Assembly (NCBI GenBank): GCA_023416195.1
Contig: JAEZID010000196.1
Span: 1-42,623, forward strand
Direction of reading: 5' to 3'
Length of the DNA stretch: 42,623 nt
From: Pseudomonadota bacterium
GTDB taxonomy: Bacteria > Pseudomonadota > Alphaproteobacteria > Azospirillales > Azospirillaceae
This document shows, in pieces, positions 1 through 34,848 of this stretch (the stretch's first letter is position 1; the number at the start of each line of letters is the position of its first letter). The position numbers and the translations under genes are program-made. A model generated the notes under the pieces. It was not told the origin of the DNA, ran no database searches, and saw only the letters and a list, made by a program, of their open reading frames with translations.

Positions 1-25
1 CCCGAGCCGGATACCCAGACCGGCG

Positions 26-841
26 TCAGTCATCAGCCTTCTTCACCGGCTCGGTCTGCGGAGCGGCGACGGTGCCCTCGGCCGGCTGACCCGCGAAGAT
101 CGGGGCGGCAGCCGGGTGCCCGGCGAAGATGCCGGCGGCCGGGTGCCCGGCAAAGATGCCCGCGGCCGGTTGACCCGCGAAGATGCCCGCCGCCGTCGTG
201 GCCCCGGTGGCCGGCTGACCCGCGAAGATGTGGTTGCCGGCAGCGGCGCCCGTGGCGGGCTGACCGGCGAAGATCGGGCCGCCGGCCGTGGCGCCCGCCG
301 CCGGCTGGGCGACGAAGATGAACGCGCCCGTGGCCGCGCTGGGAATCGGCTGAGCGACGAAGATGATGGCACTGGCGGTGGCGCCGGTGGCGGGTTGGCC
401 AGCGAAGATCGGGCCGCCCGTCGGCTGGCCAGCGAAAATCCCGGCGGCCGGGTGGCCGGCGAAGATTCCAGCGGCCGGATGGCCGGCAAAAATCCCGGCG
501 CCCGCCCCGCCGTTCGTGCTGGCGCCAGTGGCCGGCTGGCCGGCGAAAATCGGACCGCCGGCCGGCGGAGGCGTGACGGCGGGCGCGCTGGCGCTGGCGA
601 CGGCGGCGGCGGTGGCGATCGACTCGGCGGCCACGTCCGGATCGACGTCTTGGCCCTTGGCGGTCAGGGTGCGCAGCGCATCACCGGCGGCCGACCGCAC
701 CGCCTCGGCGTTCACGCCGTCGAAACCGCTGCTGGCGAGCAGGGTCCGCTTGCCGGCGGCGTCCAGGCCGTTCAGCGTGTTGCGGAACTCGCTGTCGGTG
801 GCGAGGCGTTTGATGAGGTCGAGCGCGCGATTGTTCGCCAT
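26..841 (-). CDS. Putative multi-core RiPP precursor: helical leader-like N-terminus followed by 13 IF[AV][GA][QH]P repeats
   Basis: ATG at 841 follows GGGGGG (purine-rich RBS). The N-terminus ALDLIKRLATDSEFRNTL...LLASSGF...AVRSAAGDALRTL resembles Nif11/NHLP-clan leaders and the borosin-binding domain. The C-terminal half is repetitive. Confidence 0.65.
   Translation of the reverse strand: MANNRALDLIKRLATDSEFRNTLNGLDAAGKRTLLASSGFDGVNAEAVRSAAGDALRTLTAKGQDVDPDVAAESIATAAAVASASAPAVTPPPAGGPIFAGQPATGASTNGGAGAGIFAGHPAAGIFAGHPAAGIFAGQPTGGPIFAGQPATGATASAIIFVAQPIPSAATGAFIFVAQPAAGATAGGPIFAGQPATGAAAGNHIFAGQPATGATTAAGIFAGQPAAGIFAGHPAAGIFAGHPAAAPIFAGQPAEGTVAAPQTEPVKKADD
83..550 (-). repeat. Intragenic peptide repeat array (11x IFAG[QH]P, 2x IFVAQP)
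   Basis: Counted directly in the translation. Some copies are 9-aa tandem units (GIFAGHPAA); others have longer Ala/Gly/Thr spacers. Confidence 0.9.
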
Positions 842-1127
842 CGGATTCCCCCCTGCTGTCCCGTTTGCCTGAAACGACACCCGCTTTCGCTGTGCGCATT
901 GCGGTGTATGCAAGTTATTATAGGCAGCGATAACGATGGAACTACCACCGAATTTCCACGACCGTGAGTGCGTACGAATGCGATAGCGCTCTCATGCGAC
1001 GTTTTGCTGCACGCCGCGCCCATCTCTCGCAGGTTGCATCTTCCTCTCCCGAAGGGACGGCTGACACGGGCGGGCGGTCTGTGCCAGGGTCATGGTGCGC
1101 CGCCCAGCACATCGGGAGGGAATCGCG

Positions 1128-2822
1128 ATGGTGGACAACGCGGTTCGAAGCGGGAATTCCGGCTGGGTGCCGGCGCCGCCCTCGGTGCGCGCCATGCGGC
1201 TGGCTTCCGGCCTCGTGATCTTCAGCTTCGTGACGACGCATCTTCTGAACCACGCGATGGGCCTGATTTCGCTGGACGCGATGGGCGTGGCGCGCGGCTG
1301 GTTCGTCGCCTTCTGGCGCAGCACCCCGGCGACGATCCTGTTCTACGGGTCGGTGCTCGTTCACGCCGCCCTGGCGATGGTGGCCCTGTACCGGCGCCGC
1401 ACGCTGCGCATGCCGCCGGGGGAACTGGTGCAACTGGTCCTCGGGCTGGCGATTCCGTTCCTGGTGATCCCGCACGCGGTGGGAACGCGGCTTCATGCCG
1501 ACCTGACGGGGCTTGAGGACACGTACGACGTGGTCGTGCAGACTCTGTGGGTGGACGCCCCCATGGCCGGCCTGCGCCAAATGCTGACTCTGCTGGTGGC
1601 CTGGACGCACGGCTGCATCGGCATTCACTTCTGGCTGCGCCACCGGTCCTGGTATCCGGCGGCTGCACCCTGGCTGTTCGCCGTGGCCTTGCTGATCCCC
1701 GTCCTGGCCCTGATCGGCTTCGCCCAGGCGGGCAAGGAGGTCGCCGAGCTGGTCGCGCGCTACGGGCCCGAGGCGCGCGGCCCCGATCCGCCGATGCTGG
1801 AGTGGGTGCGGTCGGGCGCTTACGGCCTGTTCGGCGGGGCCATCGCGGCGACCCTCGCGGCGCGGGGCGTGCGGGCGGTGCAGCGGCGCAGCACGCTGGT
1901 GCGGATCGCCTATCCCGACCGCCAGATCGTCGCCGTGCCGCGCGGCTTCAGCGTGTTGGAGGCGAGCCGGCTCGCCGGGATTCCGCACGTCTCGGTCTGC
2001 GGTGGGCGGGGCCGCTGCTCGACCTGCCGGGTGCGCATCGTGGAGGGGGCGGACAAGTTGCCCGAACCGAGCGCGGAGGAGCGCGCCACGCTGGACCGGG
2101 TCAGGGCGCCGCAGGGGGTCCGGCTCGCCTGTCAGTTGCGCCCCACCGCCGACCTCTCAGTGATTCCGCTGATCCGCTCCACGCCGCTGGGACCGAGGCC
2201 GCGCACCGACGGCCGCTGGAGCGGCGAGGAACGCGCCATCGCCGTCCTGTTCTGCGACTTGCGCGGCTTCACCGCCCTGTCCGAACAGAAGCTGCCGTTC
2301 GACGTGGTCCATCTGCTGAACCAGTATTTCGCCATGATCGGGCAGGTGGTGGAAGGGGAGGGCGGGCGTGTGGACAAGTTCATCGGCGACGGCGCCATGG
2401 CCCTGTTCGGGGTGGACGGCAACCCGGACCGCGCCTGCCGTCAGGCCATCGCCGCCGCCTGCGCGGTCGCCGCCGGGGTCGAGGAGATGAGCCAAGGCTT
2501 GCAGACCGAGGTGTCCCACCCGCTGCGTCTCGCCATGGGGCTGCACGCGGGCGTCGCCATTGTCGGGGAGATGGGGTACGGCCCGGCGACCTCGCTCACC
2601 GCCGTCGGCGACGTGGTCAACGTGGCGAGCCGGCTGGAGGGCCTCGCCAAGGAACTGGACGCGGAACTCGTCGTCTCCGACACGGTTGTCCGGCGGGCGG
2701 GGCTGGACCTCGGCGACGGTGCCGCGCGGGACATCGCGGTGCGCGGCCGGGCGGCTCCGGTGCGGGTTCTGGTCCTGCCCCGGACGGCGCCGTTGCAGGC
2801 GGCGCTGAGGCGCCCAGCCTAA
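1128..2822 (+). CDS. Class III adenylate cyclase with His-bearing membrane anchor and 2Fe-2S ferredoxin domain (CyaC-like)
   Basis: RBS GGGAGGG before ATG 1128. TM region with HLLNH, VHAAL, IPHAVG and WTHGCIGIH. Ferredoxin motif CGGRGRCSTC...RLACQ. Cyclase motifs LFCDLRGFT, DKFIGDG and GDVVNVASRLE. Confidence 0.9.
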   Translation: MVDNAVRSGNSGWVPAPPSVRAMRLASGLVIFSFVTTHLLNHAMGLISLDAMGVARGWFVAFWRSTPATILFYGSVLVHAALAMVALYRRRTLRMPPGELVQLVLGLAIPFLVIPHAVGTRLHADLTGLEDTYDVVVQTLWVDAPMAGLRQMLTLLVAWTHGCIGIHFWLRHRSWYPAAAPWLFAVALLIPVLALIGFAQAGKEVAELVARYGPEARGPDPPMLEWVRSGAYGLFGGAIAATLAARGVRAVQRRSTLVRIAYPDRQIVAVPRGFSVLEASRLAGIPHVSVCGGRGRCSTCRVRIVEGADKLPEPSAEERATLDRVRAPQGVRLACQLRPTADLSVIPLIRSTPLGPRPRTDGRWSGEERAIAVLFCDLRGFTALSEQKLPFDVVHLLNQYFAMIGQVVEGEGGRVDKFIGDGAMALFGVDGNPDRACRQAIAAACAVAAGVEEMSQGLQTEVSHPLRLAMGLHAGVAIVGEMGYGPATSLTAVGDVVNVASRLEGLAKELDAELVVSDTVVRRAGLDLGDGAARDIAVRGRAAPVRVLVLPRTAPLQAALRRPA

Positions 2823-8778: not shown

Positions 8779-10047
8779 TCAGTCCGCCCCTTCCGCCGCC
8801 TCCCTGGTGACACGGTCGTTCGCGATCCCGGCGATGCCCTTGGCGGCTTCCCCCGTCGCCCCGGTCTCGGCCCGCGCGATGCGGGTGTAGAGGGCGAGCG
8901 CCTGCGCCACCACCTGATCCATGTTGTAGTAGCGGTAGGTCGCCAGCCGCCCGACGAAATGCACGTTCGGCGTGGTGTCGGCCAGCGCCTGGTACTTGCG
9001 GTACAGCGCCGCGTTCTCCGCCTTCGGCACCGGGTAGTACGGATCGCCCTCGGTCGAGGGGAATTCATAGGTCAGGCTGGTCTTGCCGGCATGGACCTGC
9101 CCGGTCAGGTGCTTGTACTCGGTGATGCGGGTGAAGGGCACGTCCTCGCCGGGGTAGTTCACCACCGCCACCGGCTGGAACCACTCGCGCTCCACCGTCT
9201 CGTGCCGGAAGCGCAGCGACCGGTAGGGCAGCTTGCCGTAGCGGTAATCGAAGAACTCGTCGATCGGGCCGGTGAAGATCAGATTGTCGTGCTGGACCTC
9301 GCGCGCCACCTCGCGGTAATCGGCGTTCAGCATGATCGTGATGTTGGGATGGTCCAGCATGTTCTCGAACATGCGGGTGTAGCCGTGCAACGGCATGTTC
9401 TGGAAGCTGTCGCCGAAATAGCGGTCGTCGTCGTTGGTGCGCGTCGGCACGCGGGCGGTCACCGCCTTGTCCAGTTCCGACGGATCCAGGCCCCACTGCT
9501 TGCGGGTGTAGCCTCGGAAGAACTTCTCGTACAGCTCGCGCCCGACCGCGCCGACCACCACGTCCTCGGAGGTGCGGACCTCGGGCACCGGCTCGGCGCG
9601 TTCCCGGAAGAAGGCCGCCACCCCGGCCTCGTCCAGGTCCAGGCCGTAGAGCCTGTTCACGGTGGTGCGGTTGATCGGGATGGGGACCAGCTGTTGGTCC
9701 ACGCTGGCCAGAACCTTGTGCTCGTAGGGGCGCCACTTGGTGAAGCGCGACAGGTAGTCGGCGACCTGTTGGGAATTGGTGTGGAAGATGTGCGGGCCGT
9801 AGCGGTGGATCAGCAGGCCGTCGTCGTTGTGATGATCGTAGGCGTTGCCGCCGATGTGCGGCCGGCGGTCGATCAGCAGGACCCGCTTGCCCAGCCCCGC
9901 CGCGAGCCGTTCGGCGAGCACGCTGCCGGCGAAGCCCGCCCCGACGATCAGGTAGTCGAATCCGGCACGGCCACCCCCTGGATGTTGCCCGGGACGTCCG
10001 ATGTAGGCGGGCGCCGTGGAGCCTTGCCCGTAATGCAGATCACGCAT
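8779..10047 (-). CDS. glf: UDP-galactopyranose mutase
   Basis: IVGAGFAG FAD motif, HIGGNAYD, YGPHIFHT, YTRKQWG, EYKHLTG and GRLATYRYYNMDQVV. Confidence 0.95.
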   Translation of the reverse strand: MRDLHYGQGSTAPAYIGRPGQHPGGGRAGFDYLIVGAGFAGSVLAERLAAGLGKRVLLIDRRPHIGGNAYDHHNDDGLLIHRYGPHIFHTNSQQVADYLSRFTKWRPYEHKVLASVDQQLVPIPINRTTVNRLYGLDLDEAGVAAFFRERAEPVPEVRTSEDVVVGAVGRELYEKFFRGYTRKQWGLDPSELDKAVTARVPTRTNDDDRYFGDSFQNMPLHGYTRMFENMLDHPNITIMLNADYREVAREVQHDNLIFTGPIDEFFDYRYGKLPYRSLRFRHETVEREWFQPVAVVNYPGEDVPFTRITEYKHLTGQVHAGKTSLTYEFPSTEGDPYYPVPKAENAALYRKYQALADTTPNVHFVGRLATYRYYNMDQVVAQALALYTRIARAETGATGEAAKGIAGIANDRVTREAAEGAD

Positions 10048-10267
10048 CCGATCAGCCCTTCCATGCGAGCCCAGGTCCAGGCTCAGGACATGACCGGCAA
10101 CGCTCCATCGACCTCTTCGATCCAGGGACCGGGATCTGCGACGGCGGCGACAGGCGGTTTCCCGCGTCTTGAAAGCGGATGAAAGCGGGAGATTTCGTTC
10201 GCCGCGACCGGCGGGGTACGCCGAAAACCTCCCACCCCAACAGGACGAGAGGTTTTGTCTGTGCGTG

Positions 10268-10597
10268 TTAAGCCTTCCGCACGCCCCGCCGGGCGCGCTT
10301 CTTGCGGAAGCGGTCGATGCGTTCGATGACCTCGCCCAGTTCCGATGCCTCCTCGACCTCGCCGAGGTGCAGGAGCACGCGGATGTAGGTGTCGATCAGG
10401 CCGAGGACGGCCTCCTCGTCGGTGATGCCGTGCGCCGGACGGCCCAGGGCGTCCACGATCAGGGTCCCGCTGTCGGCGAGCGCCTCGGCCACCTCGTTGA
10501 TGGCGGCCTCAAGCGCCTCGTCATCGCCCTCCGGCGCTTCCAGCACCGGGTCGAGCATGTCGGGAAAGGAAAGCCGGTCGGCGGGATATCCAGCCAT
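10268..10597 (-). CDS. Hypothetical protein (acidic helical)
   Basis: GGAG RBS and normal amino-acid composition; 109 aa. Confidence 0.7.
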   Translation of the reverse strand: MAGYPADRLSFPDMLDPVLEAPEGDDEALEAAINEVAEALADSGTLIVDALGRPAHGITDEEAVLGLIDTYIRVLLHLGEVEEASELGEVIERIDRFRKKRARRGVRKA

Positions 10598-10749
10598 GGG
10601 CTACGCTCCGGAAATCAATGACGGGCTGTGCCCGCTCCGGTCATTATAACCGGATCGGGCGGCCTTTTGCATGGGGGGACGGATCGCCACGATCTTCCCT
10701 CCCGGAAGATCCTACGTTGAAAGGGGATGTTCGGTTCCTGAACCGTCCG

Positions 10750-12240
10750 CTAGGCCGCCATGCGTTCCGGGACGTCCTCTTCCGCCTCTTCGGCACCGAA
10801 GCCCGTCCACGGGATCAGTTCCCGACCGTTGTTGGCGAGGCGGAGCGGCTCGATCCGGCCGGCCACCGACGCGCCGTCGCGGGACAGGCGGATGATGTCG
10901 CCGTCCTCCGGAATCACCGCGCGCTCCACGCCGCAGGCGCGGGCAAGGCGGGCGTGGGCCTCCAGATGCTCCAGCGTGCCGTGCACCGGCACGGCGAAGC
11001 GCGGGCGGATCAGGTCGTACATGCGGATCAGGTCGTCCCGCTTCGGGTGGCCGGAGACGTGGACCGGCGCGTCGGCCGGCGTCACCACCTCGACCCCCTT
11101 GGCCTTCAGATGGTTCTGCACGTCGGCAAGGACCTCCTCGTTGCCGGGGATGGCGCGGGCCGAGAAGATGACCGTGTCGCCGCCCTCCAGCCACAGGTCG
11201 CGGTGCCCGTCGCGGGCCAGGCGGCTCAGCGCCGCGCGCTCCTCGCCCTGGCTGCCGGTGCACAGGAACACGAGGTTCCGGCGCGGGGTCCAGGACGCTT
11301 CCTGCACGCTCATGAACTCCGGCAGGTCGCCCAGATAGCCGCTGTCGCGCGCCGCCTTCTCCATGCGCAGCATGGACCGGCCGACCAGCACGACCTTGCG
11401 GTCGTTGGCGGCGGCGGCCTCGACGACGGCCTTCATGCGCGCCACGTTGGACGCGAAGCCGGTGACCGCGATGGCCCCCTTGCGGCCGGCGAAGGTCTGC
11501 ATCAGGCCGGCGCGGGCGTCCGCCTCCGACCCGGTGGAGCCGTCCACGTTGGCGTTGGTGCTGTCGCACAGCATCGCCAGCACGCCCTGGTCGCCCAGGC
11601 GCTTCAGCGCGGCGATGTCGGCGGTCTCGCCGATCAGCGGGTTGGGGTCGAACTTCCAGTCGCCGGTGTGCAGCACCGTGCCCGCCGGGGTGTGGATCGC
11701 CAGGGAGACCGGCTCGGGAATCGAGTGGGTCATGGCGATGGACTGCACCTTGAACGGACCGACCGGGAAGGACGCGCCGACCTCGAACACCCGGATCCGG
11801 GCCTCGCGCAGCGTGCCCTTCTCCTTGAACCGGTCACGGATGACGTGCGCGGCAAAGGGGGTGGCGTAGATCGGGCACTTCAGGCGCGGCCACAGGTGGT
11901 GGATGGCGCCGATGTGGTCCTCGTGGGCGTGGGTCACGACCAGCCCGACCACATCCTCCATCCGCTCCTCGATGAAGGTCGGATCGGCCATCAGGCTGTC
12001 GATGCCCGGCGCCTCGTCGCCCATGAAGGCGACGCCGGCGTCCACGATCAGCCATTTCCCGGCATGACCGTAGAGCGCCATGTTCATGCCGATCCGCGAA
12101 CAGCCGCCCAGCGGCAGAAAGAGGATTTCGTCGTTGCCGGGAACCGGCCCCTTCACCTTGCGCGGGGCGGTCGGACGGTTCTGCTTCGGGCGGAATCCGC
12201 CCTTCGACGCCATGCGGCGCCGCTTCGGTTCAAAGGACAT
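10750..12240 (-). CDS. rnj: Ribonuclease J family metallo-beta-lactamase/beta-CASP protein, short C-terminus
   Basis: PLGG..IGMNM, THAHEDHIG, HSIPE, HTGDWK, CDSTNA, TGSQGE and HVSGH motifs. Confidence 0.9.
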   Translation of the reverse strand: MSFEPKRRRMASKGGFRPKQNRPTAPRKVKGPVPGNDEILFLPLGGCSRIGMNMALYGHAGKWLIVDAGVAFMGDEAPGIDSLMADPTFIEERMEDVVGLVVTHAHEDHIGAIHHLWPRLKCPIYATPFAAHVIRDRFKEKGTLREARIRVFEVGASFPVGPFKVQSIAMTHSIPEPVSLAIHTPAGTVLHTGDWKFDPNPLIGETADIAALKRLGDQGVLAMLCDSTNANVDGSTGSEADARAGLMQTFAGRKGAIAVTGFASNVARMKAVVEAAAANDRKVVLVGRSMLRMEKAARDSGYLGDLPEFMSVQEASWTPRRNLVFLCTGSQGEERAALSRLARDGHRDLWLEGGDTVIFSARAIPGNEEVLADVQNHLKAKGVEVVTPADAPVHVSGHPKRDDLIRMYDLIRPRFAVPVHGTLEHLEAHARLARACGVERAVIPEDGDIIRLSRDGASVAGRIEPLRLANNGRELIPWTGFGAEEAEEDVPERMAA

Positions 12241-12755
12241 ACTACCTACAGTTCAGTCACAAACTGCCGGCATTCACCGCTGCCGGACGGGCGTGCATCG
12301 CTCGTCGATGCGCAAAGGGGTGGACCTCCCCGGTCTGCCGGCGGCGCCAGGACATTGGGGAGATGTCGAGGCAGCCACCCGGCGTCCGGCCGGGGAGGAG
12401 GGCGGGCGCACCCGGCATGAGGGCGCCGCAACCGTGAATTCTGGGGTTGAAGGACGATGACGCGGAAAGAGGTTTACGTTGCTCGCCGAAGAACGGCTCA
12501 ACAACCGCATCGTCGAAAATTTTGGGCCAAAAAGTGTGGGCCGAGTCCCTTCAGGTCCATCGGCGACTGACCTTATATGACCTTTCCGCCGTTTCTTTCA
12601 AGGGCTAACGAACAAAGACGCTTCGCCGCGGCCGTTTCGTCGTCATGGCTGCCCTGCTTCCGCTTGGCACCCGGTTGATCGGCCATCCAGCCCGAGGCAA
12701 GATGCCGCACCTTACCCACCCGCATGAACATCCACCGCACGAACACGAGGCACCG

Positions 12756-14198
12756 ATGCCGAACAGCCTGAAATTCTACATCGATGGCGCCTGGGTCGAT
12801 CCGGTGGCCGCCCCGGCGGGCGGCGCGACGCTCGACGTGATCGATCCGGCAACGGAGGAACCGTTCGCCACCATCGCCATGGGCACGTCGGCGGACGTTG
12901 ACCGGGCGGTCGCCGCCGCCCGCGCCGCCTTCCCGGCCTTCGCCGCCACATCGCGCGAGGAGCGGCTCGCCCTGATGCGGCGCCTGCTGGACTGCTACAA
13001 GGCGCGCTACGACGAGTTCGCGGACATCCTGTCGCGCGAGATGGGCGCGCCGAAGACCCTGGCCCATCGCGCGCAGGCCGCGATGGGAACCGCCCATCTC
13101 TCCAAGATGATCGAAACGCTGGAGACGTTCGCGTTCGAGGAACTGCGCGGCCCGACCCTGATCAGCAAGGAGCCGATCGGCGTCGTCGGCATGATCACGC
13201 CGTGGAACTGGCCGATCAACCAGATCATGTGCAAGGTCGCTCCAGCCCTCGCCGCCGGCTGCACGATGGTTCTGAAGCCGAGCGAGATCGCGCCGCTGAA
13301 CGCCATTCTCTTCGCCGAGGTCATGCACGAGGCCGGGGTGCCGAAGGGCGTGTTCAACCTCGTCAACGGCGACGGCCCGACGGTGGGCGAGGCCATCGCG
13401 CGCCATCCCGAGGTCGACATGGTGTCCTTCACCGGATCGACGCGGGCCGGCGTCCTGGTCGCCAAGGCGGCGGCCGACACGGTCAAGCGCGTGCACCAGG
13501 AGTTGGGCGGCAAGTCCGCCAACATCATCCTGGACGACGCCGACCTGAACCGCGCGGTGAAGCTGGGCGTCGAGGGTTGCATGAGCAACAGCGGCCAGTC
13601 CTGCAACGCGCCGACCCGGATGTTCGTGCCGGCGGCGCTCCACGAGCAGGCGGTGGCGGTCGCCCGGACCACGGCCGAACGGCTCAAGGTCGGCGCGCCG
13701 TCCGAATCCGACACCCGGCTCGGCCCGGTCGTCAGCCAGATGCAGTACGACAAGATCCAGCGCCTGATCGAAGCCGGCATCGCGGAAGGCGCCGACCTCG
13801 TGACCGGCGGTCCCGGCCGTCCCGAAGGGCTGAACCGCGGCTATTATGTCCGGCCGACGATCTTCGCCAACGTCACCGACGACATGACCGTCGCGCGTGA
13901 GGAGATTTTCGGCCCGGTGCTGGCGATCCTCCCCTACGGCAGCGAGGAGGAGGCGATCCGGCGCGCCAACGACACGCCCTACGGCCTTGCCTCCTACGTC
14001 CAGTCGGGCTCGCTGGAGCGTGCCCGCAAGGTGGCGGCGCGGATGCGCAGCGGCAACGTCTACATCAATTACCCGGCCTGGGACGCCGGCGCGCCGTTCG
14101 GCGGCTACAAGCAGTCCGGCAACGGGCGCGAATACGCCGATTTCGGCCTGGAGGAGTTCCTGGAGATCAAGGGCACCGTCGGCTACGCGCCGGCCTGA
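12756..14198 (+). CDS. Aldehyde dehydrogenase
   Basis: ITPWNWP, LKPSE, FTGSTRAG, ELGGKS, NSGQSC, EEIFGPV and FGGYKQSG motifs. Confidence 0.95.
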   Translation: MPNSLKFYIDGAWVDPVAAPAGGATLDVIDPATEEPFATIAMGTSADVDRAVAAARAAFPAFAATSREERLALMRRLLDCYKARYDEFADILSREMGAPKTLAHRAQAAMGTAHLSKMIETLETFAFEELRGPTLISKEPIGVVGMITPWNWPINQIMCKVAPALAAGCTMVLKPSEIAPLNAILFAEVMHEAGVPKGVFNLVNGDGPTVGEAIARHPEVDMVSFTGSTRAGVLVAKAAADTVKRVHQELGGKSANIILDDADLNRAVKLGVEGCMSNSGQSCNAPTRMFVPAALHEQAVAVARTTAERLKVGAPSESDTRLGPVVSQMQYDKIQRLIEAGIAEGADLVTGGPGRPEGLNRGYYVRPTIFANVTDDMTVAREEIFGPVLAILPYGSEEEAIRRANDTPYGLASYVQSGSLERARKVAARMRSGNVYINYPAWDAGAPFGGYKQSGNGREYADFGLEEFLEIKGTVGYAPA

Positions 14199-17475: not shown

Positions 17476-18720
17476 TCAATGGCCGGCGCTGAAGTCGTCG
17501 GCGAGGTGGAAGGCCTGCGGCGTCGTTGTGCCGCCGCTTCCGTCCGTGGCCCCCGTCGTGCCGGCCGTCGTGCCGGTCGAACCCGACGTGCCGGTGCCGC
17601 CCGTACCTGTGCTGCTGCCCGTGCCAGTGTCCGTGCCACCGGTTCCGGTCTCAGTCGAACCGGTCGTGCCGGTGCCACCGGTGCCCGTGCCGCCAGTACC
17701 TGTGCCGCCAGTACCCGTACCGCCGGTCGTTCCACCAGTCCCGCCGGTCGCCAAGCTGTCAACCGGATGAAGCACACCGAAGGCCACGACATCGGACAGC
17801 AGACCACCACCGGTGCCGCCCTGGTCCGTCCCGGTTTCCTCGATCGCGATGGCGCGTTGGTCCAACGACAGCAGAGCGGTCAAGAGCGCCTGGGCGTCGG
17901 AGTTGCCGTCACTCAACGGAATCGTCGTGGAGAAATGCACGTTGCCGTTCGCGTCGGCAACGCCCTGGTTCGACGAGCCGGTTCCGCCGGTCCCCGTGGA
18001 CCCACCCGTTCCCGTGGACCCGCCGGTACCGGTGGAGCCGTCCGTGCCGGTGGTCCCGCCGGTGCCCCCGGTTCCGGTGCTTCCGGTGCCCGTGCCGCCC
18101 GAACCACCGGTTCCGCCCGCGGTTCCGCCCGTGCCTCCGGTTCCAGTGCCACCCGTACCGCTGGTGCCGCTCTCACTCGCAAAGTTATCGAGATTGATGA
18201 CGACGCCGCCGAGCGCCTCGTGAAGGGTGGACAGATCAACGGTGTTTGAACTTCCGCTGCCGGTCGTCCCGCCGGTCCCCGTGGACCCACCCGTTCCCGT
18301 GGTTCCCGTTCCCGTGGAACCACCGGTGCCAGTGGAGCCGTCCGTTCCCGTGGACCCCGTTCCCGTGGACCCGCCGGTGCCCCCGGTTCCGGTGCTTCCG
18401 GTGCCCGTGCCGCCCGAACCACCGGTTCCGCCCGCAGTTCCGCCCGTGCCTCCGGTTCCGGTGCCACCCGTACCGCTGGTGCCGGTCAGCAGCCCGACGA
18501 GGTCGGTGTCGTAATCCGTTCCCGGCGTCAGCCCGGTCACCATCACATCAACCGTGAGTTGATCGGCGGACTGCGTGACCACGGCAATGCCCGTGTTGGC
18601 GGATTCGGTCGAGGTGCCTGTCCCTCCTGTGCCGCCGGTTCCTCCCGTGCCGCCTGTCCCTCCTGTGCCGCCCGTGCCCGTTGCTGATTGCAAAGTAGCA
18701 ACGTAAATTTGGTCTGGCAT
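17476..18720 (-). CDS. Gly/Thr-rich probable T1SS cargo; paralogue of 19276..19953 lacking the His ligands
   Basis: AGGAGG RBS before ATG 18720. Acidic, Cys-free and without a signal peptide. The non-repetitive segments align with the divergent neighbour. Ends in HLADDFSAGH. Confidence 0.85.
   Translation of the reverse strand: MPDQIYVATLQSATGTGGTGGTGGTGGTGGTGGTGTSTESANTGIAVVTQSADQLTVDVMVTGLTPGTDYDTDLVGLLTGTSGTGGTGTGGTGGTAGGTGGSGGTGTGSTGTGGTGGSTGTGSTGTDGSTGTGGSTGTGTTGTGGSTGTGGTTGSGSSNTVDLSTLHEALGGVVINLDNFASESGTSGTGGTGTGGTGGTAGGTGGSGGTGTGSTGTGGTGGTTGTDGSTGTGGSTGTGGSTGTGGTGSSNQGVADANGNVHFSTTIPLSDGNSDAQALLTALLSLDQRAIAIEETGTDQGGTGGGLLSDVVAFGVLHPVDSLATGGTGGTTGGTGTGGTGTGGTGTGGTGTTGSTETGTGGTDTGTGSSTGTGGTGTSGSTGTTAGTTGATDGSGGTTTPQAFHLADDFSAGH
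18056..18484. repeat. 114-bp direct repeat pair (18056-18169 and 18371-18484) within the GT-rich gene
   Basis: By eye the two copies differ at 2 positions. Both encode GTSGTGGTGTGGTGGTAGGTGGSGGTGTGSTGTGGTGG. Confidence 0.85.
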
Positions 18721-19275
18721 TCCAGGCCTCCTGACATGATTTTGGAGAGTTTGAACGAAGGGCAGCACCTCGACGGCTTTTTCGTTCACCGGGCGCCGCC
18801 GTGGACTAAACAGAATACAATCTTGGTCGTTGTTGATTCTTCAAGGTATACGTCAAGCTGTATAAGCTGATTATTTTCCGAATCCACGCGGAAGACCCTT
18901 TCTTTTCTCTGATGCGGTGCGGGCAGTGATTATGCACTTCGACTATGGGACAAGCGCGCAGGCGGCATACGTCGTCCGGTTTCCTCGCCGCCGGGAGAAG
19001 TCTGGACGTTCCGTTTCGCGGATCGTCCCGCCTTTCCGTTCTTCGGTTCGGAAGGCATATGTCATTCACGTCAATGAAATCAGAAGTAATTACACATATA
19101 TAGGAATATTGACCTTCTGAATACCGGATTCTTCACGCCGAGCTTCAGCATCTATCCTTGAATAGATGGGTGATTGCGGATCAAATACTTATGAAAGATG
19201 TGATGTCGGGCGATGGTCGGGAATGCCTCTGCACTCATCCTGTTGCCGTTGCGTGGACAATTCAGGAGGAGCATT

Positions 19276-31053: not shown

Positions 31054-32103
31054 CTACCCTTTGCGGCGGCCCAGCGCGCCAACGGCGAGGCACAGGATCT
31101 CGAACAGCATCTGCGCGCCGGCGTGAGCGGTGTTGGTGGTGGCGTCGTACTGCGGGGCGACCTCCACCACGTCGCCGCCGATCACGTCCAGCCCGTCGAG
31201 CCCGCGCAGAAGCGCCAGGGCTTCCCGCGTCGTCAGCCCGCCGATCTCCGGCGTGCCGGTGCCGGGGGCGAAGACCGGATCCAGGCAATCCACGTCGAAG
31301 GAGACATAGACCGGCCCGTCGCCGACCACCTTGCGCGCCGTCTCGATCACCGAGGCGATGCCGCGCTCGGCGACCTCCTCCGCGTGGATGACGGTCATGC
31401 CGCTGTCGTAGGAGAACTCCCACAGATACTCGGTGCTGCCGCGGATGCCGATCTGCACGGTGCGCTCGGGGTCGAGCACGCCGTCCAGAACCGCCTGCCG
31501 GAACGGCCCGCCGTGGTGGAACTTGGAACCCTCGTAAGGGCCGCCGGTGTCGCAGTGGGCGTCGAAATGGACCATGCCGACCGGCCGCTCGCGCCCCAGC
31601 GCCTTCAGGATCGAATAGGAAATGGAATGGTCGCCGCCGACCGACAGCGGCACGACGCCCGCGTCCATCACGCGGTTGTAGAAGGCCAGTATGTCCTGGT
31701 GGCAGGTCTCAAGGTTGAAGCGGCTGCCCAGCGGCACGTCGCCCACGTCGGCCAGCTTGCAGGAAGCCGCCGGCACCATGCGCAGGGCGTATTCGTAGGG
31801 GCCGATGCGTTCCATCGCCCGCACGGCGCGCGGGCCGAGGCGGGCGCCGGCCCGGTTGGTGACGCCCAGATCCATGGGCACGCCGATCAGCGCGATGTCC
31901 AGACCGCCGAAATCGGCGCTGTCCGGAGCGTCCGGCCGGTAGGGCGCGTCGAGCAGCGTGGACACCCCGGCGAAGGGCTGCACCCGCTTGCCGCCGGAAA
32001 ACTGAAGGGCGGCCACCCGCTTGAACTCCGGGTCGTGGATGTCGTCCCCGCCGGTGCCGCTGTATTTCGTACGCAAGCGGTCAAGCTTCTGAGGGTCGAT
32101 CAT
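31054..32103 (-). CDS. Agmatinase/guanidino-acid ureohydrolase
   Basis: GARLGP, GGDHS, FDAHCD, SFDVDCLDP, APGTGTPE and EVAP. Confidence 0.9.
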   Translation of the reverse strand: MIDPQKLDRLRTKYSGTGGDDIHDPEFKRVAALQFSGGKRVQPFAGVSTLLDAPYRPDAPDSADFGGLDIALIGVPMDLGVTNRAGARLGPRAVRAMERIGPYEYALRMVPAASCKLADVGDVPLGSRFNLETCHQDILAFYNRVMDAGVVPLSVGGDHSISYSILKALGRERPVGMVHFDAHCDTGGPYEGSKFHHGGPFRQAVLDGVLDPERTVQIGIRGSTEYLWEFSYDSGMTVIHAEEVAERGIASVIETARKVVGDGPVYVSFDVDCLDPVFAPGTGTPEIGGLTTREALALLRGLDGLDVIGGDVVEVAPQYDATTNTAHAGAQMLFEILCLAVGALGRRKG

Positions 32104-32129
32104 AGGGCAATCTCGTCCTTGAGGGGGGA

Positions 32130-32930
32130 TCAGTCGTGCTTGGCCCAGGCGCCGAGCAGGCGCGGCAGGTCGCCGAAGAAAGCGATCAGCCCGAACACCA
32201 GCGCGGTGAGCGACACGAACAGGACCGTCACGGCCGCCATGGTCGGCGTGTAGCCGTAACGCAACGCGTTGAAGATCTTGATGGGCAACGTCTCCATTGT
32301 GAAGCCGACCACCATGTAGGCGACGATGTATTCATTCAGCGACAGCACGAAGGCGAAGGCGAAGCCGGAAATCACGTAGGGCAGAACCAGCGGCATGACG
32401 ATGGTGCGCAGCACCGTCCGGTCGTCGGCCCCCATGGTCGCCGCCGCCTCCACATAGGCGCGGTCCACCGCGCCGAAGCCCAGCGACAGCGTGACCAGCG
32501 GCAGCGTCACGAAGAAGACCGCGTGGCTGACCACCACCGTCCAGGGCGATCCGTACTCGCCCACCGCCGCCCAGAAGCTGAGGAAGCCCAGCGCCGTGAT
32601 GACCGGCGGCAGGATGAAGGGCGTCATGCCCAGGATCTCGAAGGCCCGCGCCCAGGGCGCCCGCCACCGCCACAGGAACCACGCCAGCGGAAAGGCGATG
32701 ATGACGGCCAGCGCCGCCGACAGGGTCGCCACCACGAGGCTGGCGATCAGGGCGCCGCGCCAGCCGGGATCGGTGAACACCTCCGCGTACCACGCCAGCG
32801 AGAAGCCCTGCGGCGGGAAGGTCAGCGACTTCTTGGCGTTGACCGACACGCCGGCCACGACCATCAGCGGGGCCGACAGCACCAGCGCGATCAGCGAGGC
32901 GACCACGGTGTTGAGCGTGCGCCAGGGCAT
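32130..32930 (-). CDS. PotC-like ABC permease
   Basis: FPPQGFSLAWY, EAAATMGA and TLPIKIF. Confidence 0.9.
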   Translation of the reverse strand: MPWRTLNTVVASLIALVLSAPLMVVAGVSVNAKKSLTFPPQGFSLAWYAEVFTDPGWRGALIASLVVATLSAALAVIIAFPLAWFLWRWRAPWARAFEILGMTPFILPPVITALGFLSFWAAVGEYGSPWTVVVSHAVFFVTLPLVTLSLGFGAVDRAYVEAAATMGADDRTVLRTIVMPLVLPYVISGFAFAFVLSLNEYIVAYMVVGFTMETLPIKIFNALRYGYTPTMAAVTVLFVSLTALVFGLIAFFGDLPRLLGAWAKHD

Positions 32931-33784
32931 CAGGCCACCTCCTCCCGCCGGCCGGCGAGCAGGGCCAGCCCGACGAGCGCCAGGCTGACCAGCACCAGGA
33001 ACACCGCCATGGCCGCCGCGAAGGGCATGTTGGACTGGTAGATCGCCTGATCGGTGATGAGAACCGACAGCGTCCAGTGCTGCGGCCGGCCGAGCAACTG
33101 CGGCAGCAGGTAGGACCCCAGCGCGAAGACGAAGACCATGATGGTCGTGGCGACGATGGTGTTGCGCAGGGCCGGCACCACCACCGTGAAGAAGGCCCGC
33201 AGCGGCGAGGCGCCGAGCGTCCGCGCCGCCTCCACCAGGAACGGGTCGAACCGCGCGAGCGCCGGGTAAAGGACCAGCACCGTGTAGGGAAAGGCCTGAT
33301 AGACCAGCCCGGCCAGCAGCGCGCCGAAGCTGGGGCTGAGCGACTGCGGTTCGGCCATCAGGCCCAGCGCGACGAACAGGTTGGTGATCCCGGCGGTGCG
33401 CGACAGCAGCGTGGACCACGCGAAGCCGATGATGACCTCCGACAGCGACAGGATCGACAGCAGGAAGACCAGCCAGCGGATCTGGTTGGCGCGTGGCAGG
33501 CGCACCAGCCGGTAGGTGAAGGGAAAGGCGATCCCCACCGCCACCGCCGCGACCAGCCCCGCCAGCCCCAGCGAGAAGGACATCACCCCGCCGAAGAAGC
33601 CGGTCAGGAACCGCTCGTAGTTGGAAAAGACGAAGTCCGGTTCGTAGAAGCCGCCGGGCACGCGCCGGAAGACGCTGACCGCGATCATCAGGCTGAAGGG
33701 GATCACGAAGAAGACGACCAGCATCAGCGCCGGAAACAGGATCGGCGAATGCTCGGCGAAAGTGCGGGGCGCGCGGCGGATCAT
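32930..33784 (-). CDS. PotB-like ABC permease
   Basis: TM segments, EAARTLGA and PQLLG. Confidence 0.9.
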   Translation of the reverse strand: MIRRAPRTFAEHSPILFPALMLVVFFVIPFSLMIAVSVFRRVPGGFYEPDFVFSNYERFLTGFFGGVMSFSLGLAGLVAAVAVGIAFPFTYRLVRLPRANQIRWLVFLLSILSLSEVIIGFAWSTLLSRTAGITNLFVALGLMAEPQSLSPSFGALLAGLVYQAFPYTVLVLYPALARFDPFLVEAARTLGASPLRAFFTVVVPALRNTIVATTIMVFVFALGSYLLPQLLGRPQHWTLSVLITDQAIYQSNMPFAAAMAVFLVLVSLALVGLALLAGRREEVA

Positions 33785-34848
33785 GACGCGGCCATGGGCG
33801 GCAGGACGACGCAGGAGCCGGGCGGCAGCTCGACCGACAGCGCGCCGCCGGGTTCGACCGGCGGGCGGTCCTGCGGGCGGGACAGGGCGATGATCTCCTT
33901 TCCCGCCACGTCGATGCGGAATTCGACGCTTGAGCCGAGATCGCGCATGAAGGACAGCGTGCCGGGCAGGCGGTTCGAGCCGTCTGCCGATCCGTCGGCG
34001 GCGGTCGGATGGACGATCACCTCCTCCGGCCGGATCGACAGCAGCACGCGGCCGGACGGCGGCAGGTTCGGCAGGGACAGGGTACCGCCGGGGACCTGCA
34101 CCGTGCCGGGCCGGGTCACCTGCCCGTCCAGCAGGTTGGTCAGGCCGATGAAGTCGGCGACGAAGGCGTCGGCCGGCTGGCGGTAGACCTCCATGGGCGG
34201 GGCGGCTTGATGGATGCGCCCCTGCGACATGACCACCACGAGATCGGCCATGGTCATGGCCTCGCGCTGGTCGTGGGTGACCACGATGGTGGTGATGCCA
34301 AGCCGCTGCTGAAGCTGCTTCAGCTCGATCTGCATGGCCTCGCGCAGCTTGGCGTCCAGCGCCGACAGCGGCTCGTCCAGCAGGAACAGCCTGGGCGACA
34401 GGGCCAGGGCACGGGCGATGGCGACGCGCTGGCGCTGACCGCCCGACAGCTTGGACACCGGCCGGTCGGCCACGCCGGGCAGGCGGACCAGCTCCAGCAG
34501 CTCATCGGCGCGCTTGCGCTGGTCGGCGCGGGAGGCGCCCCGGATGCGCAGGGGGTAGGCGATGTTTTCGCCCGCCGTCAGGTGTGGGAACAGGGCCAGC
34601 GACTGGAACACCATGCCGAACTCCCGCGTGTGGGCGGGGGCGTCGGTGATGTCCCGGTCGTCGATCAGCAACCGCCCGCCGGACGGCTCCTCAAGCCCGG
34701 CGATCATGCGCAGCAGGGTCGTCTTGCCGCAGCCGCTCGGGCCGAGCAGACAGACGAACCGGCCGTGCGGGATGCGCAGGGACGCGCCGTGCACCGCGAC
34801 CGTGGAGCCGTAACGCTTGGTGAGACCGTCGAGGACGAGTGCGGACAT
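33781..34848 (-). CDS. PotA-like ABC ATPase
   Basis: GPSGCGKTT, LSGGQRQR, LLDEPLSALD and a TOBE-like tail. Confidence 0.92.
   Translation of the reverse strand: MSALVLDGLTKRYGSTVAVHGASLRIPHGRFVCLLGPSGCGKTTLLRMIAGLEEPSGGRLLIDDRDITDAPAHTREFGMVFQSLALFPHLTAGENIAYPLRIRGASRADQRKRADELLELVRLPGVADRPVSKLSGGQRQRVAIARALALSPRLFLLDEPLSALDAKLREAMQIELKQLQQRLGITTIVVTHDQREAMTMADLVVVMSQGRIHQAAPPMEVYRQPADAFVADFIGLTNLLDGQVTRPGTVQVPGGTLSLPNLPPSGRVLLSIRPEEVIVHPTAADGSADGSNRLPGTLSFMRDLGSSVEFRIDVAGKEIIALSRPQDRPPVEPGGALSVELPPGSCVVLPPMAAS

Follow-up and report, generated by a model that had tools for sequence, protein, structure and literature searches.

A cassette-rich precursor with a Nif11-like leader, encoded ahead of YcaO, TfuA and ThiS in Azospirillaceae, as a probable substrate of backbone thioamidation

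YcaO enzymes that form thioamides outside high-sulfide habitats use the thiocarboxylate of ThiS together with the hydrolase TfuA, as set out in passages of PMC13063428 and of PMC8939145, the latter citing Liu et al. 2021. For the thiovarsolins, a repeating precursor (varA), a YcaO (varY) and a TfuA (varT) suffice for thioamidated peptides, and host peptidases cut out small thioamide peptides, which become N-acetylated (passages of PMC6511847). TfuA-related clusters are abundant in Proteobacteria, which hold ~70% of those predicted with TfuA and YcaO; some, in other genera, come with Nif11-like precursors that carry a Gly-Gly motif, and all TfuA-YcaO thioamidated peptides made by ribosomes and modified after translation (RiPPs) known at the time of this 2021 global survey stemmed from Actinobacteria (parts of PMC8120280). 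An older survey set TfuA-associated YcaOs aside, their substrates being unknown (passage of PMC4603692). Here we describe a gene at the left end of a 42,623-nucleotide stretch of DNA from an Azospirillaceae bacterium (contig JAEZID010000196.1 of assembly GCA_023416195.1; hereafter the window), whose 271-residue product, a leader-like domain followed by thirteen short cassettes, is probably the substrate of backbone thioamidation by YcaO, TfuA and ThiS, with one or more thioamides per cassette.

The encoded protein falls into three parts, namely a helical N-terminal domain (N-domain), a repeat array and a charged tail (Table 1). Within ATGACTGA, its stop codon (26-28) overlaps the ATG (31-33) of a downstream ycaO gene, which indicates translational coupling. 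It is this ycaO that leaves the left edge of the window; an initial annotation, made from the sequence alone, had let the precursor itself run out of the window and had placed possible tailoring genes, YcaO among the options, just outside it, of which the second proposal held. The best-matching locus, that of A. soli CC-LY788 (L001), has the order precursor-YcaO-TfuA-ThiS with overlaps at all junctions; its precursor/ycaO overlap is equivalent (GATGACTGA), and its YcaO begins MTETGSGIRLG. Since the divergent neighbour, a membrane/2Fe-2S/nucleotidyl-cyclase fusion, is 93% identical between window and A. soli, the two loci are orthologous. The RiPP-type architecture originally proposed is thus recovered, with a leader-like N-domain, hypervariable repeated cassettes and tailoring genes immediately downstream. 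As to the products, envisaged as backbone N-methylated or otherwise modified short peptides, the neighbours YcaO, TfuA and ThiS point to thioamidation and leave N-methylation unsupported. These three, usually with rhodanese-ThiF, constitute the known backbone-thioamidation toolkit, for which each site should add ~+16 Da (O to S) and not +14 Da.

Because long spurious open reading frames (ORFs) are common at the G+C content of this genome (~69%), the precursor frame was checked by codon-position composition. The ORF (ATG at 841, TGA at 26-28, minus strand, 271 codons) has G+C fractions of 0.72/0.65/0.87 at the three codon positions (GC1/2/3), and GC3 of confident neighbouring genes is 0.91-0.94. 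The antisense frame is also open, but with a GC3 of merely 0.72, and the remaining frames hold 3-5 stops each. The precursor ORF, the sole frame both open and coding-like in composition, is therefore a real gene. Its A. soli orthologue aligns over residues 1-271 with 77% identity (E 2e-99). A start at ATG 841 rather than at TTG 913 is supported by the conservation of M1 in relatives and by an indel that sets the DNA upstream of 841 apart from that of A. soli.

A pattern derived from the 8 closest sequences was scanned against a single genome of each species and gave 23 loci, nearly all in Azospirillum. As the locus gene calls relied on a crude GC3 filter, which in some loci passed over the precursor and TfuA and at least once accepted a spurious antisense ORF (L019, 14522-16435), all tallies rest instead on tblastn of the A. 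soli proteins against the 23 loci, with Pfam annotation alongside. In 14 of the 23, YcaO, TfuA and ThiS lie downstream of the precursor and share its strand, which corresponds to every assessable locus (14/14): seven others reach a contig edge <1.5 kb after the N-domain (L009, L015-L018, L022, L023), and two have a 10-N gap inside the repeats (L014, 10589-10598; L021, 11211-11220). Repeat arrays break short-read assemblies, so cassette counts in draft genomes are minimum values. Precursors in relatives measure 270-460 aa with 24 to >30 cassettes, and in ten of the 23 loci two precursor genes stand in tandem and differ in their cassettes. Each of the 16 ThiS homologues has Gly-Gly (AGG) at its C-terminus, and all 16 TfuA homologues are 454-480 aa long (PF07812 in the L011 protein: 6e-42). 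A rhodanese-ThiF gene directly follows ThiS in 13 of the 14 operons, the exception being A. soli; a RimJ/RimL-type GNAT gene directly precedes the precursor in 19/23 loci, though neither in A. soli nor in the window; and a PAS_7 histidine kinase with a small response regulator lies convergently downstream of 12 of the 14 operons.

Across the Azospirillum loci, identity amounts to 72-77% for YcaO, 73-78% for the N-terminal part of TfuA, 68-76% for ThiS and 60-78% for the N-domain. The cassettes, by contrast, are unrelated between lineages and cannot be aligned, as illustrated by IFAGQP, AAFGQPASS, AQSASAVPAPAFSAVAAPASAFSAA, AAMPATANP, AGTAGFAAAGAPSPAASA and ASASAIETADGRALAPRHVAM. Conserved enzymes and leader set against replaced cassettes form, as judged from these alignments, a pattern typical of RiPPs. 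In 129 genomes of the order to which A. soli belongs, a profile of the N-domain matched 34 and a profile of the C-terminal extension of TfuA (see below), a feature peculiar to this subtype of TfuA, matched 34, and the two sets were identical. Both matches fell within 5 kb on one contig in 23 of these genomes; in the other 11 they lay on different contigs or scaffold parts, a contig typically breaking off within a few hundred bases of the N-domain, as repeat-induced assembly breaks would produce. The 34 genomes are probably one clade and hence do not count as 34 independent events.

A distant subgroup (N-terminus LNLAEQLIRRLATD) was represented by four loci on metagenome contigs, with linkage kept in two. 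L039 reads methyltransferase-precursor-YcaO-TfuA-ThiS, L041 reads YcaO-TfuA-ThiS-precursor, i.e. with linkage kept in a changed gene order, and the contig of L040 is cut after the precursor; the fourth, L038, is taken up below. The gene just upstream of the precursor in L039 (4987-5850) and L040 (520-1455) encodes a class I S-adenosylmethionine (SAM) methyltransferase of the Methyltransf_25/11 type. It occupies the position that the GNAT gene has in Azospirillum; accessory tailoring may differ by lineage. As a separate observation, the second precursor of A. cavernae (L002, 10001-11308) has a normal start and TIAAGQIAGG cassettes, followed by ~300 Arg/Leu-rich codons (ARLRLVRS...), and an Arg-rich stretch likewise closes the first copy (L002, 8329-9579). 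These stretches look as if the reading frame had slipped inside the repeats, either in the assembly or in the genome.

The window array comprises 7 IFAGQP, 4 IFAGHP and 2 IFVAQP, i.e. exactly 13 matches to IF[AV][GA][QH]P, in agreement with the count first given. Shuffling residues 96-271 20,000 times never produced more than 1 motif (mean 0.002). Tandem Repeats Finder reported periods of 27 and 45 nucleotides with 74-82% matches. Motif codons are varied (ATC/ATT, TTC/TTT, GCC/GCG/GCT, GGC/GGT/GGG, CAG/CAA, CAC/CAT, CCG/CCC): the 78 pairs of cassette copies differ by 166 synonymous and 80 nonsynonymous codon changes, the latter restricted to A/V, G/A and Q/H. The initial claim that the motif is held constant while spacers and synonymous codons vary is hence sustained. 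Spacers range from AAG, the shortest, to ATGASTNGGAGAG. The A. soli orthologue (387 aa) carries 24 cassettes, namely 16 IFAGQP, 5 IFSGQP, 2 IFVAQP and 1 IFAGHP. The GG-P remarked on earlier does precede three of the 13 window cassettes and none of the 24 in A. soli, and, not being conserved, was rejected as a cleavage signal. The proteins of other lineages likewise end in short charged tails, e.g. DDPTTEA, TDDDTPIKS and KPGDDEA.

A word-indexed search of 5.8 billion clusters with the whole precursor gave no match at E<=1e-3, probably because of its low complexity, and the N-domain alone was searched thereafter. Pfam and NCBIfam scans of the whole protein and of residues 1-75 and 1-94 returned chance-level matches only (DUF4186, E 8.7; Arf, E 0.05; TIGR04509, E 0.096). 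With the first 75 residues as query, phmmer against 1.84 billion representative proteins found 23 matches at E<=1e-3, nearly all of which combine a conserved N-domain of ~60-80 residues with tandem short-peptide repeats that vary from protein to protein (AAMPATANP, SAFGA, ASGVA, PQGINPAASALVPITTA, SAGVLNTGVPTA, PQGAPLGASFPFTAV). The domain has the consensus A-x-x-L-I-K/R-R-L-A-T-D-x-x-F-R-x-x-L ... G-K-R-x-L-L-x-x-x-G-F, with L9, A14, T15, D16, F19, R20, L23, L35, G39 and F40 invariant in the alignments and a second conserved motif, ESIATAA (residues 73-79), immediately N-terminal of the repeats; 72 of 80 residues are identical between window and A. soli. An AlphaFold2 model of residues 1-80, based on a 21-sequence alignment, consists of five helices (mean predicted local distance difference test score, pLDDT, 67.7), which accords with the helical N-terminus noted from the sequence.

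The Nif11/NHLP character ascribed to this domain at the outset stands as remote homology, via the relatives, and not as family membership. The window N-domain gave no Nif11 match at E<=1 in the Pfam and NCBIfam scans. Among 21 relatives, 19 matched TIGR04509 (best E 0.0031), 15 TIGR03798 (leader_Nif11; best E 1.8e-4), 15 PF07862 (Nif11; best E 2.8e-4) and 14 NF038399 (best E 0.024); such matches to the Nif11/NHLP clan are weak individually, consistent and co-linear (Nif11 model positions 1-53), with TIGR03798 scores of 13.2-21.7 bits against a curated cut-off of 32.3. One phmmer match, P0024 (E 8.5e-4 to the window N-domain), has the shape of a typical short Nif11-type precursor and passes TIGR03798 at 33.7 bits, and in hhalign a profile built from 20 N-domains matched it across 52 columns (probability 97.2%). 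On these profile comparisons we regard the N-domain as homologous to Nif11-like leaders but divergent, and not as a member by curated threshold. No Gly-Gly is conserved at its end in the alignment of relatives, and Pfam found no C39 or ATP-binding cassette (ABC) gene in the annotated loci (L001, L002, L004, L011, L019); the A. soli genome does encode C39 domains at other places. The N-domain profile hit nothing below E 0.37 among PDB sequences, and Foldseek with the N-domain model, itself a weak one, found no PDB match at E<=0.001.

With respect to the enzymes, the closest solved relative of YcaO over its full length is MJ1094 (6pe3/6peu; E 3e-41), which we take to be the thioamide-forming YcaO of methanogens; the cyanobactin cyclodehydratases TruD, MusD and LynD come next (E 1e-26 to 1e-30). 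A second YcaO gene occurs in A. soli at G001 C6:141334-142296 (PF02624, 4e-81). The N-terminal half of TfuA matches the solved 217-aa TfuA 6xp8 (E 6e-46), which lacks the helical C-terminal domain of ~250 residues that all 16 TfuA homologues carry in addition. This extension has no Pfam match. An ESM Atlas search gave cosine values of 0.90-0.93, with several SurA_N clusters among the matches, and VIA-align placed the extension model (pLDDT 63.6) near PEB4/Cj1289, SurA and PrsA (Z 6.8, 6.1, 6.0, 5.0). The extension may therefore resemble chaperones of the SurA/PrsA/trigger-factor type, a weak lead from modelling to which a common helical arrangement alone could also give rise, and it might hold the unfolded repeat substrate. 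A complex prediction for YcaO, TfuA and the N-domain scored the N-domain as partner at 0.01 against a mark of 0.32, which neither supports such a contact nor speaks against it.

Taken as a substrate of thioamidation, the precursor would work as follows. The ~80-residue Nif11-like N-domain would serve as the recognition (leader) part and the 13 IFAGQP-type cassettes as the modified parts. By the established chemistry of its family, YcaO would activate the backbone amide with ATP and convert C=O to C=S. The sulfide would come from thiocarboxylated ThiS, freed by the TfuA hydrolase, and ThiS would be loaded by the operon-encoded rhodanese-ThiF in most relatives, this gene being absent from the operon in the A. 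soli-type lineage. Proteases encoded elsewhere could then release many short thioamide peptides, as with the repeating thiovarsolin precursor. Such a release is our tentative preference for the fate of the protein, to be held with slightly less than even confidence; it draws on the cassette/spacer logic, the shift in copy number (13 vs 24), the full turnover of cassettes, the GNAT gene of most relatives and the thiovarsolin precedent.

Several points weigh against this reading. The window shows merely 11 codons of ycaO, with TfuA and ThiS inferred from A. soli, and the operon of this A. soli-type lineage lacks ThiF, for which a gene was found elsewhere in A. soli. The N-domain family scores below every curated leader-family cut-off, and the N-domain of the window is the weakest of all, at merely E 0.096 to TIGR04509. 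The 14 operons share neither a protease nor a dedicated exporter, a major facilitator superfamily gene being present in L011 alone. Up to 6 kb to each side of the L038 precursor, YcaO, TfuA and ThiS are all missing, and this locus is either a genuine counter-example, with an orphan precursor, or a case of enzymes encoded elsewhere. The co-occurrence in 34 genomes against its absence from 95 may reflect one clade. Finally, the support consists of gene linkage and homology.

In its way of working, the window system is closest to the thiovarsolin pathway (VarA/VarY/VarT of Streptomyces varsoviensis), a likeness drawn from the description of VarA. Both combine a leader and imperfect repeats of a short core with YcaO and TfuA; the N-acetylation of thiovarsolins has a counterpart in the GNAT gene of the Azospirillum loci, and neither cluster holds a conserved protease. 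The two differ in phylum, in core (APR vs cassettes with Phe or Met in Ala/Gly/Pro) and in repeat number, with at most five repeats in VarA, and the var cluster has a heme-oxygenase-like protein, an ATP-grasp enzyme and an amidinotransferase in place of ThiS and rhodanese-ThiF. Nif11-type precursors share the helical N-terminal leader, co-linear with the N-domain described here, yet have a single core where the window family has a long repeat array; the family also departs from them in its lack of a conserved Gly-Gly, in the lack of a C39 peptidase-transporter in its loci and in its sub-cut-off scores. The thioamidation of proteins, as in the thioglycine of McrA formed by YcaO-TfuA-ThiS, involves the same enzyme set and the ATP-dependent O-to-S chemistry expected for the window system, and uL16 is thioamidated in E. 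coli by YcaO alone (passages of PMC13063428). In the McrA and uL16 systems, a single site lies in a folded, conserved protein encoded elsewhere, whereas the substrate here is co-transcribed, hypervariable and repetitive.

That the final product is instead the intact low-complexity protein, studded with backbone thioamides and with the N-domain acting only as a docking module, is a possible although less probable outcome. It would sit well with the lack of a conserved protease or exporter in the 14 operons, with spacers that go down to AAG and show no recognisable cleavage motif (GG not being conserved), with the conserved charged tail that follows the array (17 of 18 residues identical) and with lengths of 270-460 aa, far above those usual for precursors. 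YcaO enzymes are, moreover, described as thioamidating whole proteins, among them methyl-coenzyme M reductase and uL16 (passages of PMC13063428). On the other hand, from one lineage to the next the leader persists but the cassettes are exchanged altogether, and copy number shifts fast, as in multi-core RiPPs; the upstream GNAT gene fits N-acetylation of freed peptides, as in thiovarsolins, whose repeats are themselves cut by host peptidases without a cluster protease (passages of PMC6511847). A poly-thioamide protein that is never cut, an Ala/Gly/Pro-rich chain with one thioamide per cassette (13; 24 to >30 in relatives), seems unlikely to us; for such a chain, the SurA-like module of TfuA would, going by its model, hold the unfolded substrate during modification. 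If true, it could be a protease-resistant material or an array of ligands for soft metals such as copper, its production might be controlled by the flanking PAS-histidine kinase and response regulator genes, and it would be the first protein known to carry thioamides at many sites.

It is improbable that the precursor is a structural or low-complexity protein merely sharing an operon with YcaO, TfuA and ThiS, which would act on another target, e.g. a housekeeping protein. The enzyme-free surroundings of the L038 precursor fit such a view. So do partial matches of 8 of the 21 relatives to the model of the IniB N-terminal domain, which are weak (best E 0.0031; 13-17 bits vs a cut-off of 40); IniB consists of an N-domain followed by Gly/Ala-rich sequence. 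YcaOs with protein substrates encoded elsewhere likewise exist (passages of PMC13063428). Against this stand the stop/start overlap with ycaO, linkage in 14 of 14 assessable loci and the presence of both parts in the same 34 of 129 genomes, a linkage that outlasts the change of gene order in L041, and the homology of the leader to Nif11-type RiPP leaders.

Still less credit is due to another YcaO chemistry on the repeats, i.e. azoline or amidine formation, although YcaO domains also cyclodehydrate, TruD, MusD and LynD are the next-best solved relatives, and the commonest Azospirillum cassettes are Ser/Thr-rich (SASAT repeats). The window array is devoid of Cys and its cassettes are devoid of Ser and Thr, so that no nucleophile for azoline formation is available there. 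TfuA and a Gly-Gly-ended ThiS are part of every complete locus, with rhodanese-ThiF in 13 of 14, the annotated loci hold no E1-like partner or dehydrogenase, and MJ1094 ranks as the best solved relative over the full length of YcaO. A split-borosin precursor with backbone N-methylated cassettes, as first suggested, is very improbable: split borosins share the general plan only, with hydrophobic cores, repeated in some cases, behind a helical recognition domain, and a methyltransferase does precede the precursor in L039 and L040, but that enzyme is of the Methyltransf_25/11 type, no borosin N-methyltransferase or any other methyltransferase lies in or beside the 14 complete Azospirillum operons, where the conserved neighbours are YcaO, TfuA and ThiS, and sequence and fold searches of PDB with the N-domain, the fold search with a weak model, gave no significant match to any solved chain.

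The thioamidation reading thus joins parts already known, the pairing of YcaO with TfuA and the concept of a thioamide precursor built from repeats, to parts that appear undescribed, namely a family of precursors of 270-460 aa in which 13 to >30 cassettes follow a Nif11-like leader without Gly-Gly, and its complete sulfur-relay operon with a long TfuA. The literature searched yielded no product of any proteobacterial TfuA-YcaO cluster, and a full-text search found nothing joining Azospirillum with TfuA, with or without YcaO. Among the matches listed for Azospirillum, RiPP and YcaO together, the papers were, by title, general genome surveys. The main text of PMC8120280 contains neither 'Azospirillum' nor 'repeat'. 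The large size of the precursors may explain the absence of the family from the main text of the papers searched. Programs that look for precursors among short ORFs do not usually consider lengths of 270-460 aa.

The family is probably the raw material for uncharacterised sulfur-modified peptides in plant-associated Azospirillum. It offers a minimal testable case, with four genes that overlap, a dedicated sulfur relay and a substrate that is large, easy to detect and provided with 13-30 identical target sites, to which natural cassette variation between species adds. It could reveal the sequence recognised by a TfuA-type YcaO and the use of a Nif11-like leader without the Gly-Gly/PCAT (peptidase-containing ABC transporter) system, and could show if the additional domain of TfuA acts as a chaperone for the substrate. 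Azospirillum live in the rhizosphere and promote plant growth, and a secreted thioamide peptide could, speculatively, matter in root-associated competition or signalling.

Table 1 Coordinates of the precursor gene, its parts and neighbours in the window, and of the corresponding features in related loci
Feature	Position	Strand	Basis or remark
Window: precursor/substrate gene, 271 aa plus stop	26..841	-	ORF and translation, codon-position composition, A. soli orthologue
Window: N-terminal domain (residues 1-80), remote Nif11/NHLP-like leader	602..841	-	Alignments, profile searches
Window: cassette array, 13 x IF[AV][GA][QH]P with Ala/Gly/Thr/Pro spacers of 3-13 residues	83..550	-	Motif coordinates
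Window: conserved C-terminal tail AEGTVAAPQTEPVKKADD	29..82	-	17/18 residues identical to A. soli
Window: first 11 codons of downstream ycaO, MTDAGLGIRLG	1..33	-	Translation; remainder beyond window edge
Window: upstream non-coding region shared with divergent cyclase gene	842..1127	-	Pairwise alignment, 86% identical to A. soli
Window: divergent cyclase fusion (N-terminal membrane region, 2Fe-2S ferredoxin domain, class III adenylate/guanylate cyclase domain)	1128-2822	+	
L001 (A. soli): precursor	10001-11164		
L001: YcaO	11157-12479		PF02624, 6e-72
L001: TfuA, 465 aa	12476-13873		PF07812, 4e-44
L001: TfuA C-terminal extension	13097-13870		Residues 208-465
L001: ThiS family	13870-14178		PF02597, 3e-6
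L038: precursor, cassettes ATSAIVTVHSPAA	6001-6495		PAS_7 histidine kinase directly after

Upstream of the precursor, a TATAAT lies at 917-922 in minus-strand reading, ~76 nucleotides before the ATG and in a block of 45 nucleotides almost identical in A. soli. A scan with the sigma-70 consensus found no full promoter upstream of the precursor, and the block is accordingly no more than a putative promoter. Two terminator-like matches from the promoter/terminator scan, both on the coding strand within the repeat array, were rejected as real terminators, since they arise simply where ATTTT (Ile-Phe) codons come after GC-rich spacers.

The divergent cyclase gene is absent from the other 22 genome loci by tblastn and is therefore not part of the thioamidation system; in the plasmid collection, Rhizobium plasmids alone gave matches, partial ones to the cyclase, and there was none for the precursor. 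Elsewhere in the window, a 437-aa ORF (17476-18789, minus strand) encodes a second low-complexity repeat protein with Gly/Thr/Ser repeats (GTGGTGG..., STGTGGSTGTGG...); it has no Pfam match, and its DNA holds tandem repeats of period 33-51 at 17984-18381. An AT skew of 0.30 at 32000-34000 coincides with two minus-strand ORFs for ABC-type permease-like membrane proteins and is ordinary.

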